Below, in pieces: positions 15,449 to 30,136 of a DNA stretch of 30,137 bases. How positions within the stretch are numbered: the first letter of the stretch is position 1; every line of letters begins with the position of its first letter. The position numbers and the translations under genes are program-made. This DNA is from an uncultured Acidobacteriota bacterium (GTDB lineage: Bacteria; Acidobacteriota; Polarisedimenticolia; J045). Under the pieces are notes generated by a model. It was not told the DNA's origin, made no database searches, and saw only the letters and a program-made list of their open reading frames with translations. The stretch spans positions 1 through 30,137 of the forward strand of contig CAZAHQ010000001.1 in the NCBI GenBank assembly GCA_964484415.1, given 5' to 3'.

Positions 15449-16831
15449 ATGAAGGCAAGCAATCGGAGTACGGCCTCGCCACGAACCATCTTGATCGTCG
15501 ACGACGATCCTGACGTGCGCTCTGTGCTCGACCAACTGCTCTCCCCGCACTTCGAGCTGCTTGGCGCCCACGATGCCGCGTCGGCGTTGATGCTCGCACG
15601 GAAACACCAGCCAGGCGTCGCCTTGCTCGACCTGCATCTCGGTGACGGACCCGATGGATTCTGGTTGCTCGAGCGACTCAAAGCGCTCGACCCCGCACTC
15701 CCAGTCGTCATTCTGTCGGTCGATCGCGATACGGAAACGATCGTGCGCGCCATGAAGGCCGGCGCTGCCCACTACATCGGCAAGACGCCGCGTTATGACG
15801 AGTTGCTCGAACGACTGCGGCTCGCGTTCGACGAACGCGGTCGAGCGATGCAACTGGAAGCGCATCGTCTGCCCGAGACGGCGGAGATTCTGGGTGACTC
15901 ACCTGGAATGATCGAGGTACGCCGACTACTCAAGCTGGCCGCCGGCTCTGAACTTCCGCTCGTGGTTTTGGGAGAGACCGGCACTGGGAAGGGTTTGGTC
16001 GCCAGGGCCACGCATCTGGCCAGCACTCGGCGCAGCGGACCGTTTCGCGATGTCAACGTCGGCGGGCTCCCGTCGTCGGTGCTCGACAGCGAGCTGTTCG
16101 GTCACGAACGCGGCGCATTCACCGGCGCCGAGCGTTTGCGCCGCGGATTGTTCGAACTCGCGGCCGGCGGAACGATCCTCTTGGATGAAATCGGCGACCT
16201 GCCACGCGATTCTCAAGTCAAGCTGCTGAAGGTCGTCGAAGAGGGGCGCGTACATCGGTTGGGCAGCGACGACGACGTGCAGACGGATGTCCGGGTCGTA
16301 GCGGCGACTCATCGTGACCTGAACACCATGATCGCGCAGGGAGCGTTTCGCGCCGACCTGTTCCACCGCTTGGCAGGCTTGGTAATCGAGATTCCGCCGT
16401 TGCGATCACGCCGCGAGGACATCCCGATCCTGACCCGTCATTTCGTGGGGGACGAGTGGGAGATCGCACCGACGGCAATCGACCAGCTCATGGCCCACGA
16501 CTGGCCCGGCAATGTACGCGAGTTGATGCATGTGATGCGCCGCGCCACTTTGTTCGCGCACGATCGCATCATCGGTGGTGAGCAGATTGCGATCCACGAG
16601 ACCGGCAAACGAAGCGATGCGGGCGCGGAACGCGCCGTCTACGCGTTGCCGTATCACGACGCGTCGAAACAAGCCCTGGACCAATTCCGTCGACGCTATG
16701 TCGAGTCGCTGTTGGAGCGCTGCGGTGGAAACGTGTCGATGGCTGCCCGCGAGAGCGGAATTTCGCGAGCCCACCTGCACGCGATGATCGCTGAACTAGG
16801 ACTCAAGTCGCGCGACGGCGATCTCGAATGA
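15449..16831 (+). CDS. Sigma-54-dependent response regulator (NtrC family; REC-AAA+-Fis HTH)
   Basis: ILIVDDD, LLDLHL (phospho-Asp), GETGTGKG, ELFGHERGAFTGA, LDEIG, FRADLFHRL, WPGNVREL, GNVSMAARESGISRAHL. Confidence 0.97.
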   Translation: MKASNRSTASPRTILIVDDDPDVRSVLDQLLSPHFELLGAHDAASALMLARKHQPGVALLDLHLGDGPDGFWLLERLKALDPALPVVILSVDRDTETIVRAMKAGAAHYIGKTPRYDELLERLRLAFDERGRAMQLEAHRLPETAEILGDSPGMIEVRRLLKLAAGSELPLVVLGETGTGKGLVARATHLASTRRSGPFRDVNVGGLPSSVLDSELFGHERGAFTGAERLRRGLFELAAGGTILLDEIGDLPRDSQVKLLKVVEEGRVHRLGSDDDVQTDVRVVAATHRDLNTMIAQGAFRADLFHRLAGLVIEIPPLRSRREDIPILTRHFVGDEWEIAPTAIDQLMAHDWPGNVRELMHVMRRATLFAHDRIIGGEQIAIHETGKRSDAGAERAVYALPYHDASKQALDQFRRRYVESLLERCGGNVSMAARESGISRAHLHAMIAELGLKSRDGDLE

Positions 16832-19800
16832 TGCGGCGAGTCGTGCTGTGGGTGATCAGCGCGGCGCTCTTGGAGTTGTGGGCCGGATCGGTGCGTGCGC
16901 GCGCAGAAGCACCGGCGCCTGCTCCCGAACGAGTCTGGGAACTCGATCTGGACGACTCGGCCGAGGCCTCACGCTGGCAGTTGCTCGATGAACCGCTCAA
17001 TCCAGGGACAATCCGCTGCCGCCACGAGTACGCCTCGCTCGACGGCAAGACGGCGACCGGCACGCTTGTATTCGAAGCAACTCCCGGCATCGGCGCGGCG
17101 AGCCTGACCACCGTCTATCGCCCGTTCCCACCCGACTTCTTTTTGACGCCCAACAACTCCTTCGTTCTGGACTGGTCATGGGAACTGGCCGACACACGAT
17201 TGTCCGATGGGGTCGCGATCGGTTTGGTGATGCAATCCGACCGCGACGGTTCGTTCGAGCGGAGTCCGGTGGCGATCAGTCATACGCGATACACGATCGC
17301 GTGGCGCGTCCTCTTCGATGCGGCCGAGACCTGGTATTCGCATCGGATCGGACTCGGTCAGGAACGGTTCGCGGCGAGTTACGCCAAGGCTCAGCGGCCG
17401 ATCGGCGTCTTCTTCGCATTTCAAGATCCGGTCGCTCAGCGCCTGCGCGTGTCCAAGCTGAGGCTTGAGGCGTGGCCGGCTGGCGCCGTCGATACCGATC
17501 CCCTGTTGGATCCACATCGATTGACTTATGACGAGCGACCTTTCACCCCTTCGATCCCCTCCACGACGACGGCGGCGACCACGCTCGCTGCGGAAGATCT
17601 GGATGGCGATGGCCTGCCCGAGCTGTTGTTGGCTCAACATCATGATTTCGTGCACGTGTGGCGCAACGACGGACACGGTGAGTTCGTCGACGACATCACA
17701 GAACCGGCGGGACTCGTCAGACGGATGATCGCTACCGGCGCGCTGTTCATCGATATCGATCGCGACGGGGACCGCGATCTGGTTCTGAGCGGGGAATTCG
17801 ATGTCCCGATCCTGTTCGAGAATCGCGGCGGTTTGCGCTTCGAGCCGGTGGCCTTGGAGAGCGATCGAGCGCTCGGTTTTTGGTATGGCTGCGCCGGATC
17901 CGATTACGACTTGGACGGCAACATCGACCTTGCGTGCACCACCGCCTTCGGTGCCCCTGGAACAACCTTGCTGCAACAAGCCGGTCCAAAGCACTGGCGC
18001 TCGATCGTACCCTCGGGGTGGGCGGGCGTTTCAACCGCAACTACCAGTGGCTTCGCCGCCGCGTGGGGTGATCTCGATGGCGATCACTATCCCGAGTTGG
18101 CGTTCGGGCGCACGTCCGTCGCGCACAATAGTGTTGGGGTTCTGCAGTCGCCTGAGATGCTCCCAACCCCCGTCACCTCACCGGAAGAAGTCGAGGGACA
18201 GGTGTTCGCCGATTTCAACGCGGATGGCACGCTCGACCTGGCGGTGCTCCGCGACATGCCTCGCAACACGGGCCAGGTCTTGATGCTGTTCAACGGCGAT
18301 GGACAGGGCGGCCTGCAGGAATCGCCGACATCGCATGAAGCGCTCGACCTGAGTGAGGCGGAAGTTCTGCTCGCGGAAGACTTCGATAACGACGGTCGAC
18401 TCGATCTGTACATCTGCCGCGAACATCTTCCCAATGTGCTGCTGTTGCAAACCGCTGCTGATGATTGGCGGGATGCCAGTGAGCTTTCGGGGCTGGCCGA
18501 TCAAGGCGGATGTGCGGGGGCGATCGCCGCCGACTTCGATGGCGATGGTCGGCTCGATGTGGCGATTGCCAGCTATGCCGAGTCGCCTCGGCTGCTTCGC
18601 AATCATCTGGCGAGTGGCCACTGGATCGGTGTGTCTGTATTCGATCGTGCGGGCGCAGACGCCGTCGGCACGCGTATCGATCTGATCGACACCGCGACAG
18701 GCAAACGACTGATGACACGTTGGCTGGAGCGAGGTCAAGGGTTTGGTTCGAACGGCCCGGCCGAGAGGCGCTTCGGCTTGGGGACGCGAACCAGCGCGCT
18801 GATTCGTGCCACGTATCCCTCGGGTGCGATACGCGAGCGCACCATCTCGGACGTCGACCAGAGCGTCACCCTTTCAGAGCCAAGCGATGGACCCCTTGCT
18901 CATGGGTGGAGCCGGCTACGCGAGATTCGCAGCGATATCACCCGCGAGTTCCGCCGGTTTGCCTTGGCCCAGCCGATGACTCGCGTCGCGATCGTGACCG
19001 TCGGACTGGTTGCCGGGTTTCTGATCGTGAGTTGGCGCCCGATGCGATGGTTTTGGTTGTCGCTGTCGGCCCTAGTGGTGGCGCTGAGTTTGATGCTGGG
19101 CTCAGTCCCGGGCCGCGGACTCGGCGGATGGGCTGCGGGGCTATGGGTTTCGGGCCAACTCCTCGGCGCCGTGATCCCGTCCCTCGCAACGATCGTGGTC
19201 CGCGGTGGGCGACGACTCTCGCGTGCCGGAGCGCGGAGTGGATCGCGCGAAGAGCTGATGCGCTGCTCGATCGATTTCCGGCATTCAGGCAGCGAGGCTC
19301 GTGCGCTGATCGCGATTACGGCTCGGCTGCAGAACCTCTTCATCGACGGACGGCTTCACGAGCAGTTCGTGATCCAGTTGCGCGAGCTGGCGGCGGCGCA
19401 CCGGCGTATGTCCATAGCGCGGCTGTCGCAACTGATCTCGCTCAGCGAGCTGGTGCTCGAGAATGCTGAAGAACCGGGCCAACTGAAACGTTCCTCGCGC
19501 CAGGTCGCCACGCTGCTCGCCGAGTTGGATTCGGAGCGACCGCGAACGGATGAGCAGTGGGGTCGCTGGCGGGCCGAGCTGCTCCCACTACTGGATACAC
19601 ATCGCGAGAATGTCGCTGCACTGCTAGCGGCGATCGACCGTCAGGCATCACTTCCGATCCTCGAGGTTCGCGACCTGGTTGAGGCCGCCTGCAAGGAGCG
19701 ACAAGCGCTGATCCCGATCGAGTTCGAGCCGGGGGCGCGGCACCAAGATCGTGCCGTGCAGGTTGTGATCTCGCCGATCGCGCTGACAACCGTGTTGGAT

Positions 19801-20127
19801 GTGTTGCTCGACAACGCGCTCGAGGCGGCACGACCAAATCAGCGGGGAGCAATACTGGTTTCGCTGACGGTCCTGCCGCGCGAGGTCGAGCTCGCCGTCG
19901 AAGACGATGGCGTTGGAATAACACCCGGCACGGAAGCGGAAGTGTTCAAGTTCGGCGTCTCGTCTCGACCTGCGGGTGGTGGGTATGGACTCCCCCGCTC
20001 GCGTGAGCTACTGGCTCATTACGGCGGGCGGCTCGAGCTACGATCGGCTACACAGCTACGCGGGGCGCGATTCATCGTGATCCTGCGTCGTAGTCTGATC
20101 GGCCCGACAGGTGTGCGGTCAACCTGA
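16828..20127 (+). CDS. Atypical membrane sensor histidine kinase: N-terminal beta-sandwich, 7 FG-GAP/VCBS repeats, ASPIC/UnbV, about 3 TM helices, HATPase
   Basis: Signal peptide; seven DxDxDG repeats (EDLDGDG, DIDRDGD, DYDLDGN, GDLDGDH, ADFNADG, EDFDNDG, ADFDGDG); ASPIC/UnbV-like LRN...HWIGV...AVGTRI...GFGSNG...RFGLG...YPSG; N box LDNALEA, G1 VEDDGVGI, F/G2 VFKFGVSSRPAGGGYGL. ATGA overlap with the regulator. Confidence 0.85.
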   Translation: MMRRVVLWVISAALLELWAGSVRARAEAPAPAPERVWELDLDDSAEASRWQLLDEPLNPGTIRCRHEYASLDGKTATGTLVFEATPGIGAASLTTVYRPFPPDFFLTPNNSFVLDWSWELADTRLSDGVAIGLVMQSDRDGSFERSPVAISHTRYTIAWRVLFDAAETWYSHRIGLGQERFAASYAKAQRPIGVFFAFQDPVAQRLRVSKLRLEAWPAGAVDTDPLLDPHRLTYDERPFTPSIPSTTTAATTLAAEDLDGDGLPELLLAQHHDFVHVWRNDGHGEFVDDITEPAGLVRRMIATGALFIDIDRDGDRDLVLSGEFDVPILFENRGGLRFEPVALESDRALGFWYGCAGSDYDLDGNIDLACTTAFGAPGTTLLQQAGPKHWRSIVPSGWAGVSTATTSGFAAAWGDLDGDHYPELAFGRTSVAHNSVGVLQSPEMLPTPVTSPEEVEGQVFADFNADGTLDLAVLRDMPRNTGQVLMLFNGDGQGGLQESPTSHEALDLSEAEVLLAEDFDNDGRLDLYICREHLPNVLLLQTAADDWRDASELSGLADQGGCAGAIAADFDGDGRLDVAIASYAESPRLLRNHLASGHWIGVSVFDRAGADAVGTRIDLIDTATGKRLMTRWLERGQGFGSNGPAERRFGLGTRTSALIRATYPSGAIRERTISDVDQSVTLSEPSDGPLAHGWSRLREIRSDITREFRRFALAQPMTRVAIVTVGLVAGFLIVSWRPMRWFWLSLSALVVALSLMLGSVPGRGLGGWAAGLWVSGQLLGAVIPSLATIVVRGGRRLSRAGARSGSREELMRCSIDFRHSGSEARALIAITARLQNLFIDGRLHEQFVIQLRELAAAHRRMSIARLSQLISLSELVLENAEEPGQLKRSSRQVATLLAELDSERPRTDEQWGRWRAELLPLLDTHRENVAALLAAIDRQASLPILEVRDLVEAACKERQALIPIEFEPGARHQDRAVQVVISPIALTTVLDVLLDNALEAARPNQRGAILVSLTVLPREVELAVEDDGVGITPGTEAEVFKFGVSSRPAGGGYGLPRSRELLAHYGGRLELRSATQLRGARFIVILRRSLIGPTGVRST

Positions 20128-20202: not shown

Positions 20203-20219
20203 ATGGCACATGGGTTGCT
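20203..20219 (+). promoter_or_regulatory. Sigma-54 (-24/-12) promoter
   Basis: ATGGCACATGGGTTGCT is near-consensus TGGCAC-N5-TTGCW. Predicted start site about 20230, immediately before RBS GAGGAGGA (20231-20238) and ATG 20245. Confidence 0.8.
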
Positions 20220-22737: not shown

Positions 22738-22986
22738 ATGTTTCGTACGTTCCGCGCCGTGAAGTTCTTGTTCGTCGGTCCCTTGATTCTGGCGATGCTG
22801 CTCGTCATCAACCTGATGACCGAGGGGCACCTGACCTGGTTCAAGTGGGCAGCACTTGGAATTGGTATCGCGTGGGTGGTCAACCTACTGCGCGTCGCGC
22901 GTGCCGTGGTGATTGCGGGCGGGCTCACCGCCGTGCTGGCCTACTTCTACCAGCGCAGACAGCGCAACGATCAGGTGCCGCGCTGA
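22738..22986 (+). CDS. Small membrane protein (2TM-like)
   Basis: GGAGGG RBS; 82 aa; MLLVINLMT...WFKWAALGIGIAWV pattern of 2TM-domain proteins. In frame with track ORF 22456..22986. Confidence 0.75.
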   Translation: MFRTFRAVKFLFVGPLILAMLLVINLMTEGHLTWFKWAALGIGIAWVVNLLRVARAVVIAGGLTAVLAYFYQRRQRNDQVPR

Positions 22987-23387: not shown

Positions 23388-23963
23388 TTACCGCTGGACA
23401 CTATCGAGTGCCTCGAGCAGCTTCGCGCTCGGCGCCAGCCCGTAGACACGGGTCCAGTGGCCGGTCGCGAGGCTTCCCACGGTAACCAGCGCCGTGTGGC
23501 TCGCCTTCGGTCCCGTCACACCGAATGCTGCGAGAAGTTGATCGATCGCCGGGCGCGAGCCAGTTACCAAGGACCAGCGCGTTCCGGCGCGGAAGCGCAG
23601 AGCGTGCGCCTGAATTCGTTCGAGTGTATCGGTCTCCGGATCAATCGAAACCGAGATCAAGCGAACATCGCTGCGATCACCTAGATCCTCCTGAAGCTGT
23701 GAGAAGACCGCAGACAACGGCTTACAGATCGTGGTGCACGAGGTGAAGATGAATTGGATAGCGACGCGCTGCCCCTCGACAAGGTCGCTGCGGAATCGCA
23801 ACTCGCGACCGCTTTGATCGACGACCGTTACATCGGGAATCTGCGGTGCCGGCAGCGCAACCGCGTCCTGTTCTGCACCAGCCCGGGCTCGCCATGGTGC
23901 GGCGCTGAGTAGAAGTACCAATCCCGTCGTTGTTGCGCGGAGTAGAGTGCGGCGGCTCGACAT
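23388..23963 (-). CDS. SCO1/SenC copper chaperone
   Basis: PDVTVVDQSG, FIFTSCTTIC (CxxxC), LISVSIDPETDT, WSLVTG, SHTALV (Cu His). ATG 23963 gives an SRRTLL leader and avoids overlap with the oxidase. Confidence 0.93.
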   Translation of the reverse strand: MSSRRTLLRATTTGLVLLLSAAPWRARAGAEQDAVALPAPQIPDVTVVDQSGRELRFRSDLVEGQRVAIQFIFTSCTTICKPLSAVFSQLQEDLGDRSDVRLISVSIDPETDTLERIQAHALRFRAGTRWSLVTGSRPAIDQLLAAFGVTGPKASHTALVTVGSLATGHWTRVYGLAPSAKLLEALDSVQR

Positions 23964-24034
23964 CGCAGAGGCTCCTTCTCGAACTCGAAGAAGAAATGGG
24001 CCCCGAGGCGAACGCCCCGGGGCCCTTGTCGTTG

Positions 24035-27000
24035 TTACGGTGTTGCCGGTGTTGTCTGCTGCACGTCGGCCGGCTTCGTCGTTGTGACGTCGAGCACGCC
24101 CCACATGCCGCCTTCGAGTTGTGTGTCGCCGACTTCGCGCATCAACCACGAGCCGATATTGCTGTCCTTGCTTCCTGCCCCGTAGTTGATTACGAGGTCC
24201 TTGTGAATCGAGACCGATAACCCGGCGATCGCACCCAACGTCATCGAGGGTGTGAACGATGGTTCGTTCGGGAAAGTGTGGCCCGCCAGTGCGAACGAGT
24301 GCTGGCGTGCCCTACCATCCGGCTGAAGGATGCGCAGTCGAACTTTTTCACCACGCTGCGCAGTGAACTTCGGCGTCTCGGGAGTTCCGTTGAAGCTCTG
24401 GAATACGTCGCGTTGCTGTTGCAGGTTGAGCACGCAGTACGGGTCGTTCACACAACCTGCGATACGCGACCAGAACGGCTCGGTCTTGTAGCTCCAGGCG
24501 CGATTGCCTTGATCTTCGGGATCGGCCTGACGGCACGCGTTGACTCCCGGTGGAACTGGCGGGTGGAAGCCGAGGAAAACTTCGTTATCCGGAATGCATC
24601 CGCCCCCTGTGGCGTAGTTTCGTAGGTTCAGGCCGTCTTGATAGAACAGGACGAAGTCGCGGAAATCGGTATTGCCGGAGCCAAGATTGGCCTTCATCAA
24701 TACGCCCTGCCCATGCCGCGGGTAGTTCCCTCCTGGTGGATTGTCATAGCCGGGTGGTTCAAGGATCAGACCACCGATCAATCCTTGCGACCCGTGCTTC
24801 ATGACGTCGCCGTAGTCGCGTAGGTTGGCTGCACCGAGCGATTCAGGGCCGGCGACCGGAATACTTCCTGGATCGCGCGGAGCGCTGAGGTCGGTCGGCA
24901 CGTACCAGCGGTAGGTGTAAGCGTGGTTGCGCCGTACGGTCTGATCGGGATTGAAGCCGACGGCGGTCCCGTCTCCAGTGCGTACGTTGAAATCAGCCAG
25001 TTGCGGGTGGAGCGAAACACGACGCGAGGGTCGCAGGTCGTCGGCGTTCATGCTGACGATTCCCGGGAAGACTGCATCGTCATTGCGATCCGGAATATTG
25101 CGGGGCAGTCGATTGGTAAGCCTGACCGCCAGACACTCACCCGGATTGGCACGAATCACCAACGGCTCCGGTGCTTTCAGCCCAGCCTGCACCGCTGCAA
25201 CATCAGCATCCGGCACAAAGACCAGACCGGTTGGATCCTTGATGCTCTCGCGACCGTTGTACGTGATTGACTTGGCAATCGCTGTCACAGGAACTGAGAT
25301 CACCGGTGCCGTACCCGGGCACGGACTTGGATCGGTTGGGTTTGGCGACAGGCAGGAGTAGCCGGTTGATACCGGGTCTTGGTAGGGCACTGCTGGCAGC
25401 GATGCACAGGTACTCCCCGGGAGTGGTTTCAACTTGGTGTGACAGTCTTTGTACACACGGAGCATTCCCCAATCACCGTTCCACAGATCGTCTGCGGCTT
25501 GTCCGCCGAACAGATAGTCAGAGAAGCACTGCCGTCTGCGTTTGCGCTCGGTGTAGCGGTTCTCGGGATTAGGTTCACGCGCGTTCTCGTACGTATCGAC
25601 TTCATCACCAGCGTCGAGCTTGTTGAACAGCGTGCTGTCGGTGTAGATGCGGTCGACCGCCTGGTCGGCCTTGCTCACCTTGTTCACTGTGCCGTCGGGC
25701 TCGAGTTCGGTATCGAGACGCGCGTTGAGAGCCCGCTTGACCGCGTCTGGCCCAGGATCGGTCGGATCGGTAACGGCCAGGGCAGCCAAGGCACCATCGG
25801 TGGTCTTGTCAGCCGTGAACGGACCCATCAGGTCGAGGCGTGTTTCCCACGCCATCTCGTCCATCTCCGCATCCGTGATGCGGCGCGTGGCCGGGCAGGC
25901 GTAGGGTGCGCGAGCAACGAACTCGAAATGCTCCGAGATACCGACCGCTTGTGCTGCACGGTACCCTGACTTCGGTTCGCTCGGCTCGAACGGCCAGCGG
26001 AAGCCGTTGATGGCGAACGAATGCTGCTCCTCTTGAGCACCCTGAATCAGTCGGAACTTGACTGAGTCACCTTCGTAGGCCATGAACAGCGGCGTCCATG
26101 GGTCACGCCCTTGCACGCAGCTGGAGAAGACATTCGCCATGTCTCCCTTGGCGCCGCCCGCCTGGGTCGCCCCATGGTCGTTGGAGATACGCAACGGGAT
26201 TGGATCGTTGCGATAGTTGAGTAGCATCGATCCCGGGTCCTCGGACGAAAGTGCTTCGGGGACGTCGGGAGGATTGATCGGATTGCCGTTACTGTCGTAC
26301 AGCAACGCGAAATCGGCGATGGCAAGCGAGTACTCGCGGAAGTGGTCGAGTTTCTTGTCTCCGTCGATGTCACCGCTTCCACCGATGATGATGTCGGCAT
26401 CAGGACGCGTCGGACCACCGTCCGAGGCGCGTGTACCGAGCTGCGTACCGGTATACGGATCTTTCCAGATCGTCGGGGTGGCCAGGCTCGTGACCGGCTC
26501 GATGATCAGCGCGCCATAAAAGCCGTGCTGCTGAATCGTCGAAGCGCCGAAGTGATCGTGCGTGAATACGGTACGCAGAGTTCGGTCGAGACCGCCTTTG
26601 TTGAGAAGCGGATCGGCATACCAGCGCTGCACCGTCGTCTGTGCACCAAGCGCTTCCATACCGGCCAATCCCGGGAACGCTGGATTGTTGACCGGGGCAT
26701 AGGTTGGTGTTCCGAGGAATGCGTTGTAGGCATTGATCCGCTGTTGAACCTCCTCATTCGAGAAGGTGCCGTCCTCGTAGTTCCATCCGTTGCCCGATCC
26801 ATCCGACGCAGTGACATCGAACTTGACCAAGTGTATGTGCTGGCCGATGGTGTCGGTCGGTAGACAGACCTGGAAAGCATCCTCCTTGAGCTCGGTGGGC
26901 GTGAGATTGGAGTGATGGAAGTTGATGCACTCGCCTGAATTTGCGCGAATGAAGAATGGATCGGCCTTGACGGAGTCGTTCGCCGTCCAGTGCATGCGAC

Positions 27001-29101
27001 CAGCGCTCGTTCCGGCGCTCGTAACGAGAGCCGTCACGTCGTCGTTGAGAACGTTGAGGCGCCCCTGTGCGTCGTGCCACTTGTCCTCGTTGGCGCGCAG
27101 GTTGATTTGAATCGCCGCCGCACGATACTCGCGCGTTGGTGTGCCCGCTGGACAAGGATCGGCAAACGGTGCGCCGCCGATGGCCGGCCGACCGTTGACT
27201 TTGAAGATCGCTCCGGTAGTGGTGCCATTGGGATACTGCGTAGGGAAACCCGCTGCGGTAGCGTGGAAGGTCATTGCACCCTGCTCGAGCGTGGTTCCTG
27301 CGGTCGGGATCAGCTTGAGGTTGGCCTTCTCCCACGACTGACAGAACATCAGGTTCGGATCTTGCATGTTGTTTGCCGTCTTGTTTCCGCTCAGCACGAT
27401 GTGCCGCGGCAGTCCGCCGGTTTGTTCCAGATCGAGCGGAGCTTGCGGTGGACGATGGCCGGCCACAGCGCCCGCTGCACCGCCCATGAAGAACGGATAT
27501 CCCGGCACTGTCGCGGTCGGCCACGGAGCGAGCGCCACACCAGGGATCGGCATGACTGCCGGATTCGGTGTGCCGCTTGGATAGGCGACCGTATCTCCGT
27601 CGGGTAGGTTGCGCGACGCCGAGCCATCCTCGAAGACATCGTGATTGCGCCACAACTCCCACATCCCCTGGGCAAAGTGTGGATACAGATGGCAATGGAA
27701 GATCGCATCACCGACGGTTCGGTTTCTGTTGCCGCCGCCGCCCCACATGATGTCGTAGTCATACGCGGTTCCCGGCCCGACGGTTTGCGAGTCGAGGTAG
27801 GTGCTGTTGTCACCGAGTCGTTCGTGTAACCACTGATGGGCGTGCAAATGGAAAATGTGCGTTTCGAACGGACCGGCGTGGAGATTGCGGAAACGCACCG
27901 GATCGTTGATGTACGAGTGATGAACATTCGAAGGGTCGCTCGGGAACTGCGTGAGCAGCGCCGGATCGCCATTGGCCCACGAAGTCAGGAAGAACTCCTC
28001 ATAAACACATTCCGGACAGTTCTTGGCGGGCCCCGTATTGTTCATCTTCGACAGCAGGATCGGGCCGATGCCCGACGAGCCGTAGTTGATGCCGAAGCCA
28101 TCGCGCGTCGGATGGAAGCGCTTACGATTCTCTTCTGTGCAGGCAGGGATCTGACCGGCGGGATAGGGGCCGCCTTCTCCAGCCGGATTGAGTACGCAGT
28201 AGTTGTGAACCGTCTTCAACTCGTCATGGAAGATCACAACGAACTCGCGAAACTTCCCGCAGCTCGCTCCAGTCGGCACCGTCGTGCAGTCTTGGTTGAC
28301 GTTGTCGATGATGGCGTTGATCTCGGAGAATCGGATCTTGTTCGTGCCGTCGAGAATCTTGACGATCGGTTTCGAGGCCGCATCCAGCTTGTTGTAGTCG
28401 AACGAGTAGACCAGCGGGTTCTTCGTTACGAGCGTTCGCACCGAGTTCATCTCGGAGCCGGTCAACTGGCTGCGATACCAGATCGATCCCGCAGGCTCGA
28501 CCACGATGGTGCCGAACAGTCCGTGCACGGTGCTACCGCCGTCCCCTTCACCACCAGCAAGTGCCGCTTGGCTATAGACCAGGTAGCTCCCTTCCTTGTC
28601 GGCGTACCAGGAATAAGTGATCGGCGTATTGCTCGGCGCGATCGTGGTATTGGCATTGCTCCCGGCCCAGCCGCCGTCGGAAGCGGTGTCGTAGACCATG
28701 CCGTTGACGTGCATCGATGCCCACCGATCGGCGGGGGCATCGGTACTGGGTGCCGGGGACTTGAGCCAGTTGTAGAACGTGACTTGCAAGCAGTCACCGA
28801 CGTTCGCTCGCAGTACAAGCGGCCGAGGTCGTTTGCTCGAAATGAGTTTGGCGTTGCCCGGCCCGGGCACGGTGCCCGTAGCGGCAACGACGTCCTCCTT
28901 CAGGGCGTACATCATCCCGACCGGGTTGATCGATCCGTAGCGGTTGTAGGTGATCACCTGGTCGAACGCTACGACATCCGCTCTGACGGTACGCAGTGCA
29001 GAGTTGCAGCTCGCGGTGGCGGCGTGCTCGGCCGTCGTGGTCAGTCCCACGACCGCGAGTAGCCCCAGGGTCCAACGCATGATCGGTGGTCCATGGCGCA
29101 T
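24035..29101 (-). CDS. mnxG: Large multicopper oxidase, MnxG-type (putative Mn(II) oxidase)
   Basis: 1688 aa; strong GGAGGAGG RBS; signal peptide. Cu motifs HIFHLHAHQW (aa ~415), HCHLYPHFAQGM (~469), HIH (~755), FTHDH (~848), in the permuted order I recall for MnxG. Further degenerate cupredoxin motifs (MHVNG, QHSFAING, SLHPQL, QHSFALAGH). The symbol is a family-level call. Confidence 0.85.
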   Translation of the reverse strand: MRHGPPIMRWTLGLLAVVGLTTTAEHAATASCNSALRTVRADVVAFDQVITYNRYGSINPVGMMYALKEDVVAATGTVPGPGNAKLISSKRPRPLVLRANVGDCLQVTFYNWLKSPAPSTDAPADRWASMHVNGMVYDTASDGGWAGSNANTTIAPSNTPITYSWYADKEGSYLVYSQAALAGGEGDGGSTVHGLFGTIVVEPAGSIWYRSQLTGSEMNSVRTLVTKNPLVYSFDYNKLDAASKPIVKILDGTNKIRFSEINAIIDNVNQDCTTVPTGASCGKFREFVVIFHDELKTVHNYCVLNPAGEGGPYPAGQIPACTEENRKRFHPTRDGFGINYGSSGIGPILLSKMNNTGPAKNCPECVYEEFFLTSWANGDPALLTQFPSDPSNVHHSYINDPVRFRNLHAGPFETHIFHLHAHQWLHERLGDNSTYLDSQTVGPGTAYDYDIMWGGGGNRNRTVGDAIFHCHLYPHFAQGMWELWRNHDVFEDGSASRNLPDGDTVAYPSGTPNPAVMPIPGVALAPWPTATVPGYPFFMGGAAGAVAGHRPPQAPLDLEQTGGLPRHIVLSGNKTANNMQDPNLMFCQSWEKANLKLIPTAGTTLEQGAMTFHATAAGFPTQYPNGTTTGAIFKVNGRPAIGGAPFADPCPAGTPTREYRAAAIQINLRANEDKWHDAQGRLNVLNDDVTALVTSAGTSAGRMHWTANDSVKADPFFIRANSGECINFHHSNLTPTELKEDAFQVCLPTDTIGQHIHLVKFDVTASDGSGNGWNYEDGTFSNEEVQQRINAYNAFLGTPTYAPVNNPAFPGLAGMEALGAQTTVQRWYADPLLNKGGLDRTLRTVFTHDHFGASTIQQHGFYGALIIEPVTSLATPTIWKDPYTGTQLGTRASDGGPTRPDADIIIGGSGDIDGDKKLDHFREYSLAIADFALLYDSNGNPINPPDVPEALSSEDPGSMLLNYRNDPIPLRISNDHGATQAGGAKGDMANVFSSCVQGRDPWTPLFMAYEGDSVKFRLIQGAQEEQHSFAINGFRWPFEPSEPKSGYRAAQAVGISEHFEFVARAPYACPATRRITDAEMDEMAWETRLDLMGPFTADKTTDGALAALAVTDPTDPGPDAVKRALNARLDTELEPDGTVNKVSKADQAVDRIYTDSTLFNKLDAGDEVDTYENAREPNPENRYTERKRRRQCFSDYLFGGQAADDLWNGDWGMLRVYKDCHTKLKPLPGSTCASLPAVPYQDPVSTGYSCLSPNPTDPSPCPGTAPVISVPVTAIAKSITYNGRESIKDPTGLVFVPDADVAAVQAGLKAPEPLVIRANPGECLAVRLTNRLPRNIPDRNDDAVFPGIVSMNADDLRPSRRVSLHPQLADFNVRTGDGTAVGFNPDQTVRRNHAYTYRWYVPTDLSAPRDPGSIPVAGPESLGAANLRDYGDVMKHGSQGLIGGLILEPPGYDNPPGGNYPRHGQGVLMKANLGSGNTDFRDFVLFYQDGLNLRNYATGGGCIPDNEVFLGFHPPVPPGVNACRQADPEDQGNRAWSYKTEPFWSRIAGCVNDPYCVLNLQQQRDVFQSFNGTPETPKFTAQRGEKVRLRILQPDGRARQHSFALAGHTFPNEPSFTPSMTLGAIAGLSVSIHKDLVINYGAGSKDSNIGSWLMREVGDTQLEGGMWGVLDVTTTKPADVQQTTPATP

Positions 29102-29153
29102 GTTGAGTCCTCCTCCCTCTCTTCAGTTTCCTGCGCTCGGCGTGGTGGTGTTC

Positions 29154-29170
29154 TGCAACAACGATGCCCA
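29154..29170 (-). promoter_or_regulatory. Sigma-54 (-24/-12) promoter of the multicopper oxidase
   Basis: Minus strand TGGGCATCGTTGTTGCA: GGCA-N6-TTGCA with exact GG-N10-GC spacing. Predicted start site about 40 nt upstream of ATG 29101. Confidence 0.65.
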
Positions 29171-29473
29171 CGGCTCGCGCGAACCGCGCGCCGCACTCCG
29201 GATCAGCTAAGCGGCTGCAATGCCGCGGTTTGTAGACTTGGGGAAGGCAGCGGGTCGCTGCTCGAGTGCGAGTGACCTCGGGGCGCCTGGGTCGTTTCCG
29301 GCCGCACCGATCAGAGTGTTGGTCGATCTACGGCCTTCTCAACGCGCCGGCGATCAACGGCTCGTTCTTGAGAATCGATTCGCGCGTGAGCAGTTAGGGA
29401 CGTGGTTGGTGGATCGCTGCCCGAAGAGCAGCGTCGATGAGAGACAGGCCTACAGCTTGGAAATCCTGATCGA

Positions 29474-30136
29474 TCAGCGGTCGGATCTCGCCTTTGCCAC
29501 TCTTGTTTGCGCTACCGACCCCGAAGCGAGACGAGCTACATGGACTTCGCGCGCGCCGTCGTGACGGTTGGCGCTGAAAGTGATGTTCTGCCCTGAGGGA
29601 ACGGCGAAGCGTTGAAGCGTCATGAGTGCGGCGCCGAGTCGATCCGCGGTGAGCTCCCGCCCCGCTCTCCGTAACGCTTCGAGAGCGACCGCCGCGGTAT
29701 CCATCGCAAACAAGCATGTGGGCGCCTGAAGCGGCCCAAAACCCTGTGCGCGGCAAGTGCTCAACGCAGATGTGCGTCGCGCGAGATCGGGGGTGCGTTG
29801 CGATCCGGCTGAGACAACCAGTAGGTCAGGCCGCATCGTTTTGTCCGCGAGGGTACGTGCATCGAGCGAAGCTGAGAGCGTGATTGTCTGGCCGCTGAAC
29901 GCTACCCGGCGAAGCTCTCGAAGAATCTGCGATGTCACCGCCGGATCAGCGAGCAACACTACGAGACTCGGGCTGCCTGCTTGTAGCCCTGTGATCAGCC
30001 TCGCGGCGTCAAGACCCTCCGGCTCGACCTCAGTCAGCGCCCAGTCTGCTTTCGACTCGGTGGCCTCGCTTGTCAACAGGTGACGCCAGGTTTCGACCCA
30101 ACTGCCGCGCTGCGCGAGAACTGTCACGGCACCACG
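29474..30136 (-). CDS. C-terminal part of a type-1 periplasmic-binding-protein-like protein (branched-chain amino acid SBP-like); partial, starts beyond the right edge
   Basis: Frame stays open to the window edge; VALEALRRAGRELTADRLGAALMTL...ITFSANRHDG resembles the C-terminus of LivJ-like SBP domains. Confidence 0.7.
   Translation of the reverse strand, partial: RGAVTVLAQRGSWVETWRHLLTSEATESKADWALTEVEPEGLDAARLITGLQAGSPSLVVLLADPAVTSQILRELRRVAFSGQTITLSASLDARTLADKTMRPDLLVVSAGSQRTPDLARRTSALSTCRAQGFGPLQAPTCLFAMDTAAVALEALRRAGRELTADRLGAALMTLQRFAVPSGQNITFSANRHDGAREVHVARLASGSVAQTRVAKARSDR

Follow-up and report, generated by a model that had tools for sequence, protein, structure and literature searches.

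What is the function of the large exported oxidase encoded near one end of a 30,137-nucleotide contig from an uncultured bacterium of activated sludge, and does it oxidize manganese as do the MnxG enzymes of Bacillus and Pseudomonas? The stretch of DNA in question, hereafter the window, is the whole of contig CAZAHQ010000001.1 (assembly GCA_964484415.1) and belongs to a 4.6-Mb metagenome-assembled genome (MAG) made of 845 contigs and 82% complete. A preliminary description had proposed for this locus a Mn(II)-oxidation system built around a giant MnxG-type multicopper oxidase (MCO), designated MCO1 in the following, with a gene for a SCO protein after it and a gene for a binding protein before it. 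According to its sequence, MCO1 appears to be a six-domain MCO of the MnxG type, and besides its cluster this bacterium possesses a second one built around an oxidase of the MnxG family. Owing to homology and gene context, Mn(II) oxidation is its best-supported function; the reading of MCO1 as a classical MCO with Mn(II) as substrate, encoded in a permuted mnxG-type cluster, is judged probable, by a modest measure.

The oxidase MCO1 and its place in the MnxG family

The open reading frame (ORF) of MCO1 is uninterrupted over its whole length (Table 1) and begins just 3' of a strong ribosome-binding site, GGGAGGAGG. Read by eye, the N-terminus of its product resembles a Sec signal, in agreement with the exported oxidase of the preliminary description. 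A regular-expression search of the translation located the four copper motifs at exactly the positions given in that description and in the same permuted order, L3, L4, L1 and L2, which is the order found in MnxG; besides these, the search returned no HxH or HCH motif in the protein. All of the 13 ligand residues (13 of 13) are invariant in an alignment of 15 sequences sharing 41-87% identity with MCO1. With respect to the MnxG of Bacillus sp. PL-12 (PDB code 9bxa, an H340A variant), motif L3 aligns with HVFHYHVHQW, and the type 1 (T1) histidine H475 of MCO1 aligns with position 340. The ligands of the T1 copper and of the trinuclear cluster are predicted to be split between domains 2 and 3.

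Among all PDB sequences searched with phmmer, the best match to MCO1 is chain A of 9bxa (E 1.3e-129), which is covered in five colinear stretches from residue 7 to residue 1203 of 1227; the second-best matches are two-domain laccases (E 5e-5). The protein was also modelled with AlphaFold in two overlapping halves, residues 30-1075 and 1000-1688, with predicted local distance difference test (pLDDT) values of about 66 and predicted template modelling scores of 0.71 and 0.73. For both halves, 9bxa_A is the first Foldseek match (E 1.5e-36 and 7.4e-39), with TMq values of 0.55 and 0.62 that are to be read with the mean pLDDT of only 66, falling below 50 over the copper motifs; ceruloplasmin and the coagulation factors V/VIII trail far behind in both lists. 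In addition, cross-matches occur inside MCO1 between the thirds of the protein. The colinear match to the whole of MnxG, the Foldseek results of both halves and these internal cross-matches together support the organization in six cupredoxin domains put forward in the preliminary description. The assignment of MCO1 to the MnxG family is made because the homology to MnxG extends over the whole length and nothing else comes close. The Pseudomonas-type MnxG equivalog model of NCBIfam, NF041487, also matches along the MCO1 protein, despite a score under its cut-off. The other types of Mn oxidase, MofA, McoA and MoxA, are reported to show only a low homology to MnxG (10.1101/2022.11.10.515945).

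A distinctive feature of MCO1 is the segment between cupredoxin domains 4 and 5, which measures 133-145 amino acids in MCO1 and two relatives only, the proteins of loci L012 and L010, for a median of 15 amino acids among 96 homologues. In the AlphaFold model this insert is built as helices, with pLDDT values of 73-92 in parts. L012, from a Logan contig, encodes the closest relative of MCO1, 87% identical to it.

To place MCO1 among its homologues, trees were inferred from a MAFFT FFT-NS-2 alignment, one with 96 rows under LG+G4 and one with 47 rows under a C20 mixture, and both were rooted on Bacillus-type MnxG. The Bacillus type was represented by a Priestia plasmid locus and a Bacillus mycoides plasmid copy; the Priestia oxidase matches 9bxa_A with 1705 bits, and a small ORF upstream of it matches MnxF (9bxa_E, 1.8e-17). 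None of the 400 genomes sampled in the class of a MAG labelled Gammaproteobacteria (G001) reached the cut-off of NF041487, and for this reason the Pseudomonas type was represented by a proxy distinct from P. putida itself, locus L097 of genome G048, the best full-length match to that model among these genomes, with 2414 bits. In both trees MCO1 forms a small clade (support 100) with the proteins of L012 and L010, at a nearly basal position in the Gram-negative-type radiation. This clade falls outside a 37-row clade (support 98) comprising the proxy, nearly all sequences from Acidobacteriota and Myxococcota, and MCO2, the second MnxG-family oxidase of the genome. MCO1 joins the path between the Bacillus type and the subclade containing the proxy, and therefore both validated Mn oxidases bracket it. 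As judged from these trees, MCO1 is orthologous to neither of the two validated enzymes, the MnxG of Bacillus and that of Pseudomonas. So far, its subclade counts the protein of the window, its orthologue from the same genus, P0005 of locus L010 (51% identical) and, at about 50% identity, three more proteins from metagenomes.

The gene cluster, its regulation and its distribution

The gene that follows MCO1 encodes a SCO1/SenC protein scoring 62.5 bits on PF02630 (cut-off 22.8, E 5.3e-17), which possesses a CTTIC motif at residues 76-80 and shares 77% identity with the SCO protein encoded downstream of the L012 orthologue. Its start was placed at ATG 23963, preceded by a GAAGGAG ribosome-binding site; the start at GTG 24149 was rejected, being devoid of such a site and implying an overlap of 115 nucleotides with the oxidase gene. 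The gene located ahead of MCO1, cut by the end of the contig, encodes the last 220 amino acids of a type-I periplasmic binding protein of the Peripla_BP_6 family, sharing 51% identity with the C-terminal end of the L012 counterpart, which contains a CADCH motif at residue 63. In the relatives, this counterpart consists of a fusion of a monohaem cytochrome c and a Peripla_BP_6 domain. Both neighbours are thus what the preliminary description took them for, and they belong to the cluster as in P. putida (PMC11409713). A GC-rich hairpin separates the oxidase from the SCO gene and is possibly a partial terminator or attenuator that could set the ratio of the two products. That description had also seen no MnxE- or MnxF-like genes, and a tblastn search of the whole 4.6-Mb genome (82% complete) with the Priestia MnxE/MnxF pair gave no match better than E 4.8.

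Table 1. Features of the MCO1 locus, in positions of the window.
Feature	Position	Strand	Basis
MCO1, putative exported six-domain multicopper oxidase, MnxG family	24035..29101	-	1688-amino-acid ORF and translation; complete T1 and trinuclear ligand set
Predicted Sec signal peptide, residues 1-30, MRHGPPIMRWTLGLLAVVGLTTTAEHAATA|SC (ATA|SC)	29012..29101	-	sequence read by eye
Motif L3, H415xxH418xH420(xH422)QW, HIFHLHAHQW	27830..27859	-	T1, T2 and T3 histidines of domain 2
Motif L4, H469-C470-H471-x3-H475-x4-M480, HCHLYPHFAQGM	27662..27697	-	T1 Cys/His/Met and two T3 His
Motif L1, H755xH757 (HIHLVKFD)	26831..26839	-	domain 3
Motif L2, H848xH850 (THDHF)	26552..26560	-	domain 3
133-amino-acid insert, residues 1062-1194, between cupredoxin domains 4 and 5; predicted helical sub-domain	25520..25918	-	length comparison and model
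Sigma-54 -24/-12 promoter-like site, tGGGCAT-N5-TTGCA, about 55 nucleotides 5' of the MCO1 ATG	29154..29170	-	motif search
SCO1/SenC protein, presumed copper chaperone, 191 amino acids, SRRTLL signal, C76-TTI-C80, conserved His	23388..23963	-	Pfam PF02630
GC-rich hairpin of 12 bp with a T-rich tract behind it, located after the MCO1 stop codon and ahead of the SCO ribosome-binding site	23998..24025	-	sequence; shuffles of the region give about one such site
Type-I periplasmic binding protein, C-terminal 220 amino acids, cut by the contig end	29474..30136	-	Pfam PF13458 (Peripla_BP_6), 38.2 bits (cut-off 31.7)

With respect to regulation, the consensus GGCAY-N5-TTGCW occurs twice in the window for 0.19 occurrences expected, each time ahead of an operon, and one of the two sites lies upstream of MCO1. 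Of 91 homologous loci, 16 have the motif close to the start of the oxidase gene, the 87% identical orthologue of L012 included, against a background of 0.8%. In P. putida, mnxG possesses sigma-54 sites and requires both MnxR and RpoN (PMC13689576), and the motif upstream of MCO1 may parallel this sigma-54/MnxR control. The other consensus site (20205-20219, plus strand) precedes a DUF2846/OmpW operon and lies directly 3' of a gene pair for a propeller-sensor kinase and a sigma-54 regulator (15449-20127). This pair was considered as the primary analogue of MnxR/MnxS and set aside, its regulator being 34% identical to that of L012 versus 46% for the regulator of another contig, C296. It is further disfavoured by having a target promoter of its own nearby (20205), whereas the C296 regulator gene directly precedes the propeller gene.

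The cluster probably continues on this contig C296 (L013: 2-5378), a join deduced from synteny. C296 encodes a histidine kinase, a sigma-54 response regulator, a YncE/YtkA-like propeller of 643 amino acids and a SCO protein of at least 295 amino acids, the propeller and the SCO protein being respectively 76% and 67% identical to their L012 counterparts; the SCO gene runs off the contig end in the orientation expected if it abuts the truncated binding-protein gene of the window. In L012, the order is propeller, SCO, cytochrome c/binding protein, sigma-54 regulator, oxidase and SCO. The full cluster is accordingly likely to comprise the kinase, the sigma-54 regulator, the propeller, a SCO protein, the cytochrome c/binding protein, the sigma-54 promoter, MCO1 and the second SCO protein.

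A second mnxG cluster occurs on contig C7 (L009: 5945-19369). Its oxidase, MCO2, consists of 1908 amino acids and is 38% identical to MCO1; two separate stretches of it match NF041487, with 707 and 584 bits. The MCO2 gene is preceded by genes for a LuxR-type regulator and a PAS hybrid kinase, and followed by those for a β-propeller of 657 amino acids, two SCO proteins and a monohaem cytochrome c/Peripla_BP_6 fusion. From MCO2 onward, this order is that of genes one to five in the mnxG operon of P. putida GB-1, and the C7 cluster is more Pseudomonas-like than that of the window. In L012, the MCO1-SCO pair is followed by a LuxR regulator and a PAS kinase that share 79% and 67% identity with their C7 counterparts, and then by a SCO protein 70% identical to the second one of C7; no MCO2 is present there. 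This layout means either that the two clusters formerly made up a single island or that one oxidase was lost in L012. The three genes recognized in the preliminary description (SCO, oxidase and binding protein) were all found in the window; the system, however, extends beyond them, with further genes likely on C296 and the second cluster on C7.

The host is neither a Bacillus nor a Pseudomonas, as had been supposed, and its phylum is probably Gemmatimonadota, since the named top matches of its RsgA protein all belong to this phylum (60-65% identity). The MCO1 gene is present in activated-sludge, bioreactor and wastewater metagenomes of 13 studies. Among host relatives, an MCO1-type gene occurs in one of two other genomes of the same genus (88% identical) and in none of 38 further genomes of the family and class, and an MCO2-type gene in a single same-family genome among the 40; the trait is therefore accessory and patchy.

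The occurrence of such an oxidase in this host, outside Bacillus and Pseudomonas, is not surprising. A protein search with MCO1 returned more than 3771 matches, many of them named "copper oxidase" or "manganese oxidase" and originating from Pyrinomonadaceae and Myxococcota, and a scan of species-representative genomes gave at least 599 stretches, at least 589 of them confirmed as homologous, in Acidobacteriota, Myxococcota, Nitrospirota, Planctomycetota, Gemmatimonadota and others. The best 80 of these stretches, which belong to Acidobacteriota, Myxococcota, Planctomycetota, Nitrospira, Gemmatimonadota, Pseudomonadota and MAGs labelled Bacillota, were searched by tblastn with the accessory proteins of the window genome. 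A propeller gene was found at 66 of these loci, a SCO gene at 56, a binding-protein gene at 49 and a sigma-54 activator gene at 30. The commonest order is oxidase, propeller, SCO and binding protein, and the permuted order of the window cluster is found at L048, L060 and L063; in the Pseudomonas-type proxy locus, too, the propeller gene lies directly 3' of the oxidase gene. The cassette made of an MCO, a propeller, a SCO protein and a cytochrome c/binding protein is conserved at the majority of the 80 loci, which represent at least seven phyla. Already in 2013, a survey had reported MnxG-like six-domain oxidases in Geobacter, Leptothrix, Nitrosomonas, Sorangium, Stigmatella, Planctomyces and haloarchaea (PMC3600357), and the annotation of mnxG in MAGs is routine in metagenome papers (PMC10367259).

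Some variations on this theme were encountered in the course of the survey. Two or three MnxG-family oxidase genes stand in tandem before a single propeller/SCO/binding-protein set at L028, L029, L031, L034 (Sorangium), L086 and L089. In the Pyrinomonadaceae proteins P0011-P0036 (2400-2840 amino acids), an MnxG-family oxidase is fused to Ig-like, PPC and peptidase/Tol-type β-propeller domains. The oxidases of L061 (a Planctomycetota MAG) and L075 (a Bacillota MAG) are nearly identical, with end branches of 0.026 and 0.04, a likeness due either to a binning error or to a very recent transfer.

Elsewhere in the window, the ORFs located between 21434 and 23388 give no Pfam match and show no link to the oxidase cluster. 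A likely small two-helix membrane protein (MFRTFRAVKFLFVGPLILAML...), devoid of any family match, is encoded at about 22740-22986 on the plus strand, within a longer mechanically called ORF. At the opposite end of the contig (1-1296, minus strand), a gene open at the contig edge encodes a polyhaem cytochrome with 16 haems (Paired_CXXCH_1, E 2.4e-89).

The probable substrate and the competing explanations

According to the mechanism proposed here, MCO1 would be exported via the Sec pathway and would probably acquire its copper in the periplasm, with the help of the SCO1/SenC proteins encoded next to it, acting as presumed chaperones. The substrate would donate its electrons one by one to the T1 copper in domain 2 (H415, C470, H475 and M480). 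Over the His-Cys-His bridge they would reach the trinuclear cluster at the interface of domains 2 and 3 and there reduce O2 to water. The likeliest substrate would be Mn(II), and next Mn(III), with Mn oxide formed outside the cell as by the MnxG of Bacillus and Pseudomonas. Transcription would probably proceed from the sigma-54 promoter, the likely activator being the C296 response regulator paired with the kinase.

Several observations weigh against this proposal. To our knowledge, activity has been shown for the Bacillus and Pseudomonas members only, i.e., two enzymes assayed in the whole family. Multicopper oxidases are promiscuous, and the family also occurs in organisms not known as Mn oxidizers, e.g., Nitrospira and Sorangium. 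The score of MCO1 on NF041487 amounts to 711.5 bits for a cut-off of 3100. The protein lies outside the Pseudomonas-type subclade; forcing it inside costs 22.6 log-likelihood units (approximately unbiased test, p 0.025, for a group defined after inspection of the tree). With respect to the MnxG clade on which the preliminary description made its proposal depend, MCO1 lies in neither validated subclade and belongs only to the wider family that both validated enzymes span. The helical insert is missing from the validated enzymes, and the AlphaFold model is at its worst over the copper motifs, with pLDDT below 50 for model residues 382-459. At the level of the locus, synteny is the one line of evidence that places C296 next to the window, and no RNA run is listed among those holding the MCO1 gene.

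Alternatively, the enzyme family and its chemistry might be unchanged and the physiological substrate of MCO1 be something other than manganese: Fe(II), MCO1 then being a ferroxidase, Cu(I), in a copper-detoxification role, or phenolics or humic substances of the sludge. The deep clade of its own in which MCO1 stands apart from both validated Mn oxidases, its score under the equivalog cut-off and the clade-specific insert all point this way. The 16-haem cytochrome encoded on the same contig hints at a general metal redox metabolism, and the authors of a bioRxiv survey caution against taking homology to a Mn oxidase as proof of Mn oxidation (10.1101/2022.11.10.515945). Such a shift of substrate is considered possible and rather less probable than Mn(II) oxidation: the characterized six-domain members of the family are all Mn oxidases, the accessory cassette is that of the P. 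putida mnxG operon (PMC11409713), and the copper-resistance genes copA/B and cusF are not adjacent in the window. A related and improbable suggestion is that the MCO1 subclade represents a distinct, self-contained type of the MnxG family, in which the insert either takes the place of separate partners, for example by capping or gating the product channel like the MnxE3F3 ring of Bacillus, or confers another substrate.

The genes surrounding the oxidase lend themselves to two further explanations, both of them very improbable. Instead of standing alone, the oxidase might belong to an electron-transfer module in which the cytochrome c/binding-protein fusion and the propeller connect it with the respiratory chain by the transfer of electrons or substrate; the oxidation of the metal would then be coupled to energy conservation. 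In this respect, the single-CxxCH fusion is kept beside the oxidase across phyla, pseudomonad Mn oxidation needs cytochrome c maturation genes (PMC11409713), and a polyhaem cytochrome is encoded in the window; yet the O2-reducing trinuclear site is complete and invariant, which offers electrons a direct route to O2, the polyhaem gene lies 23 kb away, no evidence tying it to the oxidase cluster, and an energy-conserving MnxG is not known. Hardly credible, finally, is the idea of a recently acquired, poorly expressed or decaying island with no present role. The patchy distribution (an MCO1-type gene in one of two same-genus and none of 38 family- and class-level genomes), the hairpin between the oxidase and SCO genes and the missing RNA runs would fit such an island, but an ORF that stays open for 5 kb and retains all of the ligands would not, nor would an orthologue 87-88% identical with a matching downstream SCO gene and sigma-54 motif, nor a population recurring in the sludge and bioreactor metagenomes of 13 studies.

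With its two diverged mnxG-type clusters, a recurrent activated-sludge bacterium, probably of the Gemmatimonadota, joins the likely Mn oxidizers. Bacterial Mn oxides scavenge metals and micropollutants, and the removal of manganese is a goal of water treatment. The family, the operon and its sigma-54 control have already been published, and MnxG-type genes have already been found in the host phylum (as assigned, Gemmatimonadota); the window cluster is a permuted member of the family and an incremental addition.

Comparison with known systems

The mnxG operon of P. putida GB-1 consists of mnxG followed by genes for a YVTN propeller, two SCO1 proteins, a cytochrome c domain-containing binding protein and a SurA-domain protein (PMC11409713; PMC13689576), in agreement with the association of mnxG with SCO and binding-protein genes given in the preliminary description. 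Both systems possess a large exported six-domain oxidase with the copper motifs in the same order, together with propeller, SCO and cytochrome c/binding-protein genes (the propeller and one of the two SCO genes being on C296, which probably abuts the window, and the cytochrome c domain of the window's binding protein being presumed from relatives), and the binding-protein gene of the window corresponds to the fifth gene of the operon (PMC11409713). A sigma-54 promoter motif is common to both, and the kinase and sigma-54 response regulator of C296 recall the MnxS1S2R control. They differ by the length of the oxidase, which reaches 1944 amino acids in P. putida (PMC3600357) versus 1688 in MCO1, and by the predicted helical insert that separates domain 4 from domain 5 in MCO1. 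In addition, the accessory genes precede the oxidase gene instead of following it, an extra SCO gene comes after MCO1, and the SurA-domain gene is not seen in the window cluster.

The uncharacterized genes annotated as "copper oxidase" or "manganese oxidase" in Pyrinomonadaceae, Myxococcota, Nitrospira and others encode proteins sharing 44-50% identity with MCO1 and are similarly accompanied by the propeller, SCO and binding-protein cassette, and in many cases a sigma-54 activator gene lies upstream. In contrast to MCO1, these proteins belong to the large clade (support 98) and are devoid of the insert between domains 4 and 5.

For Bacillus Mnx, a Km of 0.116 mM is quoted in 10.1101/2022.11.10.515945. 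The Mnx complex of Bacillus sp. PL-12 (MnxE3F3G, PDB code 9bxa) contains a shorter MnxG of 1227 amino acids, located on the spore surface, and requires MnxE and MnxF, neither of which was found in the window genome (tblastn, 82% complete). Loci of the Bacillus type are devoid of the SCO, propeller and binding-protein genes, and the linkers of Bacillus MnxG measure 74, 25 and 8 amino acids, whereas those of MCO1 measure 128, 89 and 133. In spite of these differences, MCO1 is colinear with the Bacillus enzyme over all six domains, both of its halves find in it their best structural match, and the T1 and trinuclear ligands occupy equivalent positions in the two proteins, H340 corresponding to H475 of MCO1.

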